From IMG/VR virus record IMGVR_UViG_3300026097_000805, positions 96,001 through 160,000 of that record: 64,000 nt of DNA. One strand, given 5' to 3'. The notes beneath the pieces were generated by a model. It was not told the origin of the DNA and made no database searches. It worked only from the letters and a program-made list of their open reading frames with translations. Every line of letters starts with the position of its first letter. The first letter of the stretch is position 1. Positions 20,492 through 22,301 of this stretch are shown one piece after another. Source of the stretch: a virus. Made by a program: the position numbers and the translations under genes.

Positions 20492-20565
20492 TGGCACCGG
20501 TCCAGGGAATCGAACCCCGAGTTTCAGTTTTGGAGACTGACGTGTTGCCATTACACTAGACCGAT
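20492..20565 (-). tRNA. trnW: tRNA-Trp(CCA)
   Basis: Cloverleaf, loop CTCCAAA, CCA. Confidence 0.92.
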
Positions 20566-20586
20566 ATAAAACTTTTTCCTCCTACT

Positions 20587-20626
20587 AAAAATAAAAAACC
20601 CCTGCTAATATCTCTACTAGCAGGGG
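20587..20626 (-). terminator. Intrinsic terminator of attenuator A (upstream of the Trp...Phe array)
   Basis: CCCCTGCTAG-N8-TTAGCAGGGG stem followed by TTTTTTATTTTT. Confidence 0.9.
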
Positions 20627-20651
20627 TGCGTTAAATAACTTTTCTTGACTA

Positions 20652-20729
20652 CTATGTCAAAAGCACACTCCTGCCTTCGCTAAACCAGCGAATGCAATAT
20701 TGTTGAATATGTTTCATCATTGTAGTCAT
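20652..20729 (-). CDS. Leader peptide A (25 aa, MTTMMKHIQQYCIRWFSEGRSVLLT)
   Basis: Translated by hand; lies between a promoter and a terminator, ends TAG TAG, and includes the antiterminator 5' strand. Confidence 0.8.
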   Translation of the reverse strand: MTTMMKHIQQYCIRWFSEGRSVLLT

Positions 20730-20766
20730 TTCTATTTCTCTTTGTTTAATTTCTTAGTATGTGTAT

Positions 20767-20795
20767 ACTATACACGTTTATTTATCTTCTGTCAA
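20767..20795 (-). promoter_or_regulatory. Sigma70-type promoter for leader A with nested ATAAATA motif
   Basis: TTGACA-N17-TATAGT; GATAAATA within the spacer (20779-20786). Confidence 0.8.
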
Positions 20796-20810
20796 CCGTT
20801 TATTTTACTT

Positions 20811-20834
20811 TTTGACAATTTAGATACAATATTT
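20811..20834. repeat. 24-nt inverted repeat, downstream arm
   Basis: TTTGACAATTTAGATACAATATTT, exact reverse complement of 22211-22234. Confidence 0.95.
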
Positions 20835-20838
20835 TAAA

Positions 20839-20913
20839 TGGTACACCGTAGGGGAATCGAACCCCTCTTTCCTGCGTGAAAGGCAAGCGTCCTAACCGAT
20901 AGACGAACGGTGC
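20839..20913 (-). tRNA. trnE: tRNA-Glu(TTC)
   Basis: Cloverleaf, loop CTTTCAC, CCA. Confidence 0.94.
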
Positions 20914-20918
20914 ATATA

Positions 20919-20995
<77 letters not shown>

Positions 20996-21001
20996 AATAA
21001 T

Positions 21002-21094
21002 TGGCGGTGAGGGTGGGATTTGAACCCACGGAACGCTATTAACGTTCGTCTGTTTTCAAGACAGGTGCAATAAGCCGGACTCTGCCACCTCACC
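21002..21094 (-). tRNA. trnS: tRNA-Ser(TGA)
   Basis: Loop CTTGAAA, long variable arm, G73, CCA. Confidence 0.93.
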
Positions 21095-21101
21095 AATAAA
21101 T

Positions 21102-21397
21102 TGGCAGCCCGTTAGCCACACACCGTTGGAATGATGCTTGTGACCCCTACACTGTAATAGCCCTGCTGTCTAGTTTATCAGTCTAGGGCACAAACTATTG
21201 TTTAGGTATAGGACTTTTGCTTCTCACTAAAGACCGCCACGGACCAACGGACGGCACTCTTTAGAACTAACACTAATGCAAAGAGCAAGTGGTTAACCAA
21301 TGCATCGACCTAGTTACTTGATAGACTATATCATATCTTTCGCTACTATCGGGCGGTTCAGGCCCTTATCGCCGTCTCTTTCGAGCTAGTGTGTAGT
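21102..21397 (-). ncRNA. Unidentified ~296-nt structured RNA inside the tRNA array
   Basis: Occupies a tRNA-like slot, ends GCCA, has no T-arm; many hairpins and long-range pairings (see findings). Confidence 0.65.
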
Positions 21398-21473
21398 TGG
21401 TAGCGGGAGCAGGAATCGAACCTACCTCAGTCCGGCTTATGAGACCAGTGAGTTCCCAGAACTCTATCCCGCA
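21398..21473 (-). tRNA. trnM: tRNA-Met(CAT), initiator-like
   Basis: Loop CTCATAA; 1:72 mismatch (T:T) and GCGGGA acceptor resemble fMet tRNA, although the anticodon stem lacks three consecutive G-C pairs. Confidence 0.85.
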
Positions 21474-21476
21474 ACT

Positions 21477-21550
21477 TGGAGCGGATACCGAGAATCGAAC
21501 TCGGACGATCACGTTGGCAACGTGAGAGGCTACCTTTACATCATATCCGC
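21477..21550 (-). tRNA. trnG: tRNA-Gly(GCC)
   Basis: Loop TTGCCAA, U73, CCA. Confidence 0.92.
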
Positions 21551-22272: not shown

Positions 22273-22301
22273 ACTATACTACTTTATTCTGTGCCTGTCA
22301 A
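22273..22301 (-). promoter_or_regulatory. Sigma70-type promoter directly upstream of the Asn...Glu array
   Basis: TTGACA-N17-TATAGT. Confidence 0.8.

Follow-up and report, generated by a model that had tools for sequence, protein, structure and literature searches.

Comparison with homologues indicates that the 296-nt gap between the tRNA-Met and tRNA-Ser(tga) genes (21102–21397, minus strand) holds two separate, conserved and folded small-RNA genes in tandem, with module A lying 5′ of module B. Our overall reading, which we consider somewhat likely, is that both are small RNAs which occupy tRNA slots and are processed to maturity by tRNA enzymes, module B being tRNA-like.

The gap between tRNA-Met and tRNA-Ser(tga)

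The window, by which we mean the whole 64,000-nt stretch of DNA analysed, belongs to a 179.6-kb IMG/VR virus record with an estimated completeness of ~50 %. Its phage DNA ligase showed at most 36 % identity to that of any cultured phage, and DNA near-identical to the window is present in marine, saltern and seawater metagenomes. Two arrays on the minus strand carry 20 tRNA genes in total, most of them packed 1–8 nt apart without elements of the kind described here. The gap adjoins the CCA of tRNA-Met at its 5′ end and reads GGGCUGCCA at its 3′ end (at 21102). The first-pass annotation, which had described it as one pseudoknotted RNA with a CCA end, quoted the coordinates and every motif exactly; it was also right that the stretch begins directly after the tRNA-Met CCA. 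ARAGORN (introns allowed) and the Rfam tRNA model call no tRNA in it.

No ORF longer than 32 aa lies wholly within the gap, and a 48-aa and a 42-aa frame enter it from the flanking tRNA-Met gene. Along with the covariation found in homologues, this bears out the earlier call of a non-coding, structured RNA locus within a tRNA operon. A σ70-like promoter heads the first tRNA array, which includes modules A and B, and no terminator as strong as the attenuator hairpin at 20598–20627 was found in the operon, where two weak consensus matches were the only candidates. Position, the single upstream promoter and the lack of a comparably strong terminator suggest that both modules are co-transcribed with the tRNAs in a polycistronic precursor, in line with the co-regulation that had been proposed. 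Contigs from an RNA library (run X15) cover only 21142–21254, at low depth; we set them aside as evidence because contigs cannot show transcription or RNA ends.

Elsewhere on the minus strand of the window, 58692–59076 encodes a permuted two-piece tmRNA (tag ANDNYAPETALAA), which also matches the alphaproteobacterial type (86 bits) and so hints at an alphaproteobacterial host. Three contigs carrying module B were binned with Marivivens or Flavobacteriaceae MAGs and are probably phage contigs. A ‘tRNA-Met(cat)’ at 20012–20082 (minus strand) scores only 29.6 bits, just at the threshold of Rfam, and its D region is unusual; locus L003 has the same weak gene.

The folding energy of the gap gave z = +0.21 against shuffles for the whole region and z = −0.31 and −0.86 for its two halves, no better than the shuffles. 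Potential helices of ≥7 bp (G–U allowed) numbered 39, compared with 27 ± 5 in shuffles, and helices of this length are common by chance in such a sequence. A single sequence gives no proof of structure, so the question was settled by comparison of homologues.

A search of 21102–21397 against Rfam 15 with permissive filters returned no family at E ≤ 10; the models for which a cmscan-type check had been suggested (GOLLD, ROOL, RNase P, Y RNA and group I) gave nothing overlapping the gap at that threshold. Readings as a hairpin ribozyme, RNase P RNA, group I intron or riboswitch were set aside, having no Rfam support. Neither the 296 nt nor two module B homologues matched GenBank phages by blastn, and the flanking sequence returned tRNA matches only; at blastn sensitivity, no cultured phage appears to carry module A or B. 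Near-identical copies were found in several marine and saltern metagenomes.

Each module is present once in the phage genome. The two are unrelated and occur apart in other contigs, from which we conclude that the 296 nt are a module A placed before a module B. The covariance model of module A (R1) found no module A across the other module B loci. Collecting homologues and checking covariation, as had been advised, showed both modules to be conserved with compensatory pairs, and the families so obtained are small (7 sequences for module A and 12 for module B), all their members belonging to related phages. Gene order in the tRNA arrays of this clade is highly fluid. Both module types are embedded among tRNAs with spacers of just 3–11 nt, and in L003 the Met and Ser(tga) genes are adjacent with neither module between them.

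Several other elements of these arrays were noted. Two GC-rich gaps, of 112 nt between Gly and Met (L128:10340–10451, plus strand) and 145 nt between Leu and Pro (L003:1237–1381, plus strand), look structured and match nothing compared. In L131, a phage contig of 342 kb, ARAGORN called a CUA-anticodon tRNA at 990–1064 (minus strand), which it labelled Pyl, and in L122 a tRNA-Ser(act) at 3190–3279 (minus strand); the two may be suppressor or odd-anticodon tRNAs. An ORF of ~22 aa with a zinc-ribbon-like CxxC...CxxC pattern is conserved between tRNA genes in L003 (1003–1068, plus strand) and L084 (~1635–1710).

Table 1. Positions in the window of the two predicted small-RNA genes, their structural elements and the flanking features
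Feature	Position	Strand	Evidence
Promoter, σ70-like, at head of first tRNA array (with modules A and B)	22273–22301	−	11/12 consensus matches
tRNA-Met(cat), encoded CCA, upstream of gap	21398–21473	−	ARAGORN and Rfam
Module A, predicted cloverleaf-shaped (four-way junction) small RNA	21265–21397	−	CM R1, 79.3 bits
Module A P1, 5′ strand ACACUA (partner UAGUGU, 21270–21275)	21387–21392	−	100 % of cells paired
Module A P2 hairpin, CUC-GAAA-GAG	21376–21385	−	2/3 pairs compensatory
Module A P3 arm, with CGAU/GUCG as invariant base, an AUA-tipped variable hairpin and an insertion specific to the window	21306–21371	−	
Module A P4 arm, AUGCA/UGCAU, ~20-nt conserved loop	21276–21305	−	Two compensatory pairs
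Module B, predicted tRNA-like small RNA ending GCCA	21102–21272	−	CM R2, 128.4 bits
Module B H1 and H1b hairpin, 10-nt loop GUUGGUCCGU	21227–21264	−	Compensatory pairs: H1 7/8, H1b 4/6
Putative pseudoknot, 5′ strand GGUCCGU in H1b loop	21239–21245	−	97.6 % of cells paired with 21106–21112
Module B H2, long arm with conserved base, variable in length and sequence	21146–21212	−	
Module B H3 hairpin, invariant UUCCA (T-loop-like) in loop	21117–21142	−	98.3 % of cells paired
Putative pseudoknot, 3′ strand ACGGGCU, mimic of acceptor 3′ strand	21106–21112	−	Covariation and duplex energy
Module B 3′ terminus GCCA, single-stranded, with a discriminator-like G before CCA	21102–21105	−	11/12 homologues
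tRNA-Ser(tga), downstream, 7 nt past GCCA	21002–21094	−	ARAGORN and Rfam

Conserved folds of modules A and B

Module A measures ~95–120 nt across its family and has highly conserved loops, with a ~25-nt lineage-specific insertion in P3 of the window copy (alignment A2). Its fold is the RNAalifold consensus. Across the seven sequences of A2, 95.8 % of cells are paired and 12/31 pairs show changes on both sides; 0–1 of 500 shuffles were as good, and slid controls paired at 35–46 %. P1 covaries at two pairs (A–U/G–C and U–A/C–G), the variable hairpin of P3 contains six compensatory pairs and P4 reads ACACA/UGUGU in relatives versus AUGCA/UGCAU in the window. Some of the stems noted earlier map onto this fold. 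The inner part of AACTAG..ATGCA/TGCAT..TTAGTT is P4, whereas its outer part, AACTAG/TTAGTT, conflicts with the conserved P1; the first of the GAAA tetraloops caps P2 and is backed by covariation.

Loci for the module A search were fetched via the neighbouring phosphoesterase gene (54 loci) and then by pattern scans. Searching the 54 loci with the element by blastn and nhmmer gave one weak match, which was the first module A homologue. In L003, whose array is the closest to that of the window, a 96-nt gap elsewhere corresponds to the first ~130 nt of the element and shows compensatory changes relative to it. Six distinct copies, all short forms, besides that of the window were recovered (L003, L068, L084, L097, L107 and L111), each between two tRNA genes, and a last viral scan that dropped the GAAA loop requirement yielded no new member. 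A further variant of module A (P1 GCACUA/UAGUGC; P2 CCU-UUCU-AGG) is present in a saltern contig, in flanks unlike those of the window. On the 3′ side of the module A copy in L111, the tRNA-Leu gene that comes next (~2560–2650, minus strand) seems to be interrupted after the D arm by an insertion encoding a GIY-YIG-like homing endonuclease.

A ~1-kb RNA family containing the motif GACGGCGAUAAG was considered as a member of the module A family and rejected, as P1 and P2 are absent and R1 scores only 18–21 bits. At L072:40–1135 (plus strand), the stretch is non-coding, with a strong promoter at one end and an intrinsic terminator at the other, and is rich in GNRA-capped hairpins; it is also conserved in L065, L095, L098, L099, L101, L102, L105 and L108–L110 (~11 marine contigs). 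It has no Rfam match at E ≤ 0.01 and shares the motif CUAGUACGAAAGCGACGGCGAUAAG with module A, and it may represent an undescribed large RNA.

Module B is ~130–175 nt long across its family and was recovered in 12 distinct copies (the window and 11 others). An exact pattern based on the element’s 3′ half found no match, and a comparison of this half with the phosphoesterase-linked loci and five whole related contigs returned nothing. Metagenome contigs of four runs over the region comprised full-length copies ~96–97 % identical to it and a loose end whose 3′ end had diverged; the homologues were reached by a pattern from this diverged end, two more scans and a scan of a prokaryote genome collection. 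L122 and L128 carry module B alone, directly behind a tRNA, and the order in L128 (Met, module B, Ser(tga)) reproduces the slot of the window. In L119, L121 and L123, module B is preceded by another element of ~75 nt.

The structure of module B was derived from alignments A4–A6 and model R2, A6 having been fitted to the model; 91.6 % of cells are paired and 15/31 pairs are compensatory, with none of 500 shuffles as good and slid controls at 35–48 %. H1 (21259–21264 with 21227–21232) encloses H1b (21249–21255 with 21233–21238), and a linker leads to H2. The H2 arm ranges from ~30 to 75 nt; most homologues have a paired base here, in place of which L119 has CUUACAAC/GUUGUAAG. UUCCA is present in all 12 rows at the loop of H3, after which an invariant GGCUAACGG leads to the 3′ end. 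The tRNA-like CCA end reported in the first-pass annotation is a property of module B, whose GCCA is kept by 11 of the 12 copies; L122 ends in ACUA, without CCA. Two further stems from that annotation are recovered with covariation, CTAAAGA/TCTTTAG as H1 and CCTATAC/GTGTAGG as the base of H2, while GCCC.CTAG/CTAG..GGGC falls in the tip of H2, which is lineage-specific, and is no more than plausible.

The ~75-nt element directly 5′ of module B, ‘module C’ (L121:3045–3120, minus strand; L123; L119:~865–936, plus strand), is conserved, starts with AUACUGUG, ends with CACUGUAUAUAG and has hairpins of its own. A ‘module D’ of ~120 nt lies just 3′ of module B in L129 and L131 and before tRNA-Met in L121; it starts with UGACCCAACGUCACUG and ends with ...GGACUGCCA. 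Module D shares with module B a stretch resembling AAAGAGUGC and an end in CCA, and so may be its relative.

Probable loop–tail pseudoknot and proposed role of module B

The 3′ tail has the family consensus ACGGNCY. The loop strand GGUCCGU, preceded by an invariant GUU (21246–21248), probably pairs with the tail to form an H-type pseudoknot helix, and covariation lends this moderate support. Among the 12 copies, three of the seven pairs vary yet stay paired (G·U in 6, A–U in 3 and G–C in 3; G–C in 11 and A–U in 1; U–A in 8, C–G in 1 and U·G in 1, with 2 broken) and the other four never vary. Both broken cells (L119 and L129) fall in one pair, equivalent to 3–70 of a tRNA. The covariation score was matched by 2 of 500 shuffles, slid registers pair at 14–56 % and the duplex energy is −10 kcal/mol in the window (−6.7 to −13.8 in the family). 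A natural variant at 21245 (G to A in the RNA) converts G·U to A–U in this helix. Two other partners were considered and rejected: GGGUC of H2 fits the loop less well than the tail does where position 1 is A (judged by eye), and a small GGC/GCC hairpin suggested by RNAalifold for the tail is disrupted in L122 and has less strength than the pseudoknot. The crossed pairings first proposed were wrong, and the loop–tail pairing within module B is supported instead.

The pseudoknot helix resembles a tRNA acceptor stem. Compared with the 5′ acceptor strands of the 160 tRNAs in these loci, the module B helix is nearest to tRNA-Glu (mean 1.6/7 mismatches), followed by Asp (2.8/7), with at least 3 mismatches for other classes. 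The tRNA-Glu of L133 (GGCCCGU/ACGGGCU plus G plus CCA) is identical to the pseudoknot and end of module B in L132, and its 3′ acceptor strand is the same as the tail ACGGGCU of the window. CCA is encoded by 156/160 of these tRNAs, and the marks read from the module B sequence comprise U at −1, a purine (G or A) at +1 and R73-CCA. On account of the Glu-like acceptor helix, the GCCA and the UUCCA hairpin, we call module B tRNA-like, and it may descend from or imitate tRNA-Glu. Six invariant nucleotides lie between H3 and the acceptor strand, and both the D arm and the anticodon loop are missing, so that its shape is not that of a canonical tRNA.

In the route that we propose, the enzymes that mature the neighbouring tRNAs would excise modules A and B from the precursor. 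As no base lies between the pseudoknot helix and H1b, the two could stack into ~13 bp, with the 7-bp loop–tail helix resting on the 6-bp H1b and ending in single-stranded GCCA; this pseudoknotted mimic of an acceptor arm would sit beside the T-loop-like hairpin and the variable arm. RNase P and 3′ trimming would then recognise the mimic, the 3′ end being trimmed to CCA. Cleavage of module B by RNase P is a step that we put forward tentatively. The cut may fall between 21246 and 21245, directly behind the invariant U, giving a two-piece RNA held together by H1/H1b, through which the 5′ piece, here with module A, would stay annealed. Loop 1 cleavage of an H-type pseudoknot by bacterial RNase P is reported to require a 3′ RCCA and to work best with U at −1 (Kosek et al. 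2025, PMC12710915).

Mature module B would act in trans by presenting a tRNA 3′ end to a protein that reads such ends; candidate partners are EF-Tu, a synthetase, RNase P, the CCA-adding enzyme and a host toxin that targets the ends of tRNAs. The role of tRNase decoy suggested in the first-pass annotation is possible. A more ambitious version, which we consider speculative and rather unlikely as a whole, would make module B the first tRNA-like structure class found in dsDNA phages: a pseudoknot-built mimic of the tRNA-Glu acceptor, cut by RNase P in loop 1 to a two-piece RNA and deployed in trans so as to engage or misdirect host factors acting at tRNA 3′ ends (defence toxins by which the CCA end is modified or cleaved, maturation or charging enzymes), with the arrays of the clade serving as a reservoir of further RNA cassettes (module A, ‘C’ and ‘D’).

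Other explanations account for part of these data. The elements could act in cis only, punctuating processing or folding as RNase P or RNase E entry sites or as insulators that release or balance the flanking tRNAs, without any trans product. Their constant location between tRNAs, with spacers of 3–11 nt only, and the marks of an RNase P substrate on module B fit such a role; most tRNAs in the arrays, however, are 1–8 nt apart and do without these elements, the modules vary in position relative to particular tRNAs, and the long near-invariant loops (the P4 loop of module A; GGCUAACGG and UUCCA of module B) suggest a specific partner. We judge this explanation unlikely.

It is quite improbable that module B is a true charged molecule, aminoacylated with Glu, for example, and serving as a substrate or donor in the manner of plant-virus ends. 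The 7-bp helix followed by G and CCA, nearest to tRNA-Glu with its bacterial G73, would suit charging, but GluRS identity elements lie mostly in the anticodon loop and D arm. Module B has neither, its 3–70 pair varies and is broken twice, and L122 is without CCA. In favour of charging, TYMV-type ends, whose acceptor is also pseudoknotted, are aminoacylated (PMC12710915).

Decayed tRNA genes, or neutral spacer without a function of its own, would be consistent with the great fluidity of the arrays, with MFE z-scores near zero and with a module B helix that could be a relic of a tRNA-Glu acceptor. Decay does not readily explain loops conserved along with compensatory stems in 7 and 12 divergent copies, a cassette kept at different array positions or the near-identical copies in several marine and saltern metagenomes, and we regard it as highly improbable.

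Scarcely credible, and largely refuted, is the original proposal of one 296-nt pseudoknotted RNA closed by 5′–3′ pairing, possibly a miniature relative of GOLLD or ROOL: the quoted complementary segments do exist and GOLLD does occur in related arrays, but the two halves are independent cassettes in other contigs, helices of 7 bp are expected by chance, GOLLD and ROOL gave no match even at E = 10 and the three long-range or crossed pairings fail because each strand belongs to another conserved, covarying helix. For CTACACAC with GTGTGTGG, the 5′ strand is part of P1 of module A (CUACACAC) and the 3′ strand is the 3′ half of H3 (GUGUGUGG), kept in 12 homologues. For TAGCTCG with CGGGCTG, the 5′ strand belongs to P1/P2 of module A, while CGGGCUG is the pseudoknot tail that pairs with the loop GGUCCGU. 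For CCGTTGG with CCAACGG, the partner is not conserved, reading CCACUCU or similar in homologues, and the variant at 21245 would give an A × C mismatch.

Comparison with known RNAs

Phage tRNA clusters are now mainly seen as answers to codon mismatch and to host tRNA-cleaving defences. Against this background, the modules represent two new RNA families in tRNA slots with comparative structural support, adding to the non-tRNA cluster RNAs known since T4 species 1 and 2. Module B gives this a concrete predicted design (a pseudoknotted acceptor mimic, U at −1, a 7-bp helix and GCCA), and the result suggests a wider set of uncatalogued RNA cassettes in the tRNA arrays of marine phages.

GOLLD and ROOL, with which the locus had been compared, are several-fold larger and form multimeric cages, ROOL being ~580 nt long, whereas the modules measure 95–175 nt and match neither model. 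Both RNAs are found in phages and prophages, often near tRNA islands, and GOLLD often exceeds 800 nt (PMC12286853). The GOLLD 3′-domain model (RF02032; gathering score 150 bits) had no match in 20480–21480 at E ≤ 10 and none in the window’s own array, while positive controls scored 186 bits (L003) and 195 bits (L121). ROOL and the other large ornate RNAs in Rfam 15 gave no match either, and the region splits into parts of ~130 and ~170 nt. Of the two options first offered, a small member of the GOLLD/ROOL class or a new class, the former is not supported, and no Rfam family matches the locus. The GOLLD copies of the related arrays (L003:2413–2872, plus strand; L121:1700–2162, minus strand) are elements of their own, each with an embedded tRNA-like gene.

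Module B is not called as a tRNA by the Rfam model (RF00005) or ARAGORN in any of its 12 copies, with introns allowed or not. Models of RNase P RNA, tmRNA and Y RNA-like elements found nothing over 21102–21397 at E ≤ 10, nor over module B in five other loci. Comparison of its copies does predict the ~7-bp helix followed by single-stranded NCCA by which tRNA-like structures are recognised. A two-piece tmRNA resembles the form proposed for module B in building its acceptor end from distant strands and in holding its pieces together by base pairing; module B differs in that it lacks a tag frame, its acceptor strand adjoins no canonical T arm and no tmRNA model matches it.

A biochemical parallel is an engineered biotin-aptamer pseudoknot with a GCCAC trailer, an H-type structure that RNase P cuts in loop 1 when a 3′ RCCA is present and with a preference for U(−1) (PMC12710915). 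Module B has the corresponding parts (loop 1 GUU, a 7-bp stem and GCCA) and is a candidate substrate; the engineered one is an artificial RNA of 33 nt.

T4 species 1 and 2 RNAs (rnaC and rnaD) are small, stable, derived from tRNA precursors and of a function that is not known (PMC2330249). Like the modules, they are small non-tRNA RNA genes within a phage tRNA cluster, for which co-transcription is suggested here. In the T4 sequence, rnaD ends in ...GCACCA and rnaC contains a T-arm-like hairpin. The T4 RNAs differ from the modules in sequence, structure, size and fold: R1 and R2 found no match in T4 68000–76000, and inspection of rnaD by eye revealed no comparable loop–tail pseudoknot.

The tRNA-like ends of TYMV-type plant viruses (Tymo_tRNA-like) have an H-type pseudoknotted acceptor ending in NCCA, as predicted for module B. 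The TYMV tRNA-like structure is an RNase P substrate of the pseudoknot type, and ends of this type are also substrates for valylation, as cited in PMC12710915. The Tymo_tRNA-like model (RF00233) found no match in the element and a weak one, of 16.8 bits, on tRNA-Glu (20839–20907) only. Plant-virus ends form the 3′ terminus of an RNA genome and have retained an anticodon-like arm, whereas module B is a free-standing gene in the tRNA operon of a dsDNA phage, and its loop strand, unlike theirs, lies ~130 nt upstream of the tail. Judged by analogy, the predicted architecture of module B is nearest to these plant-virus ends, while the T4 species are the nearest counterparts of the modules in place and kind.
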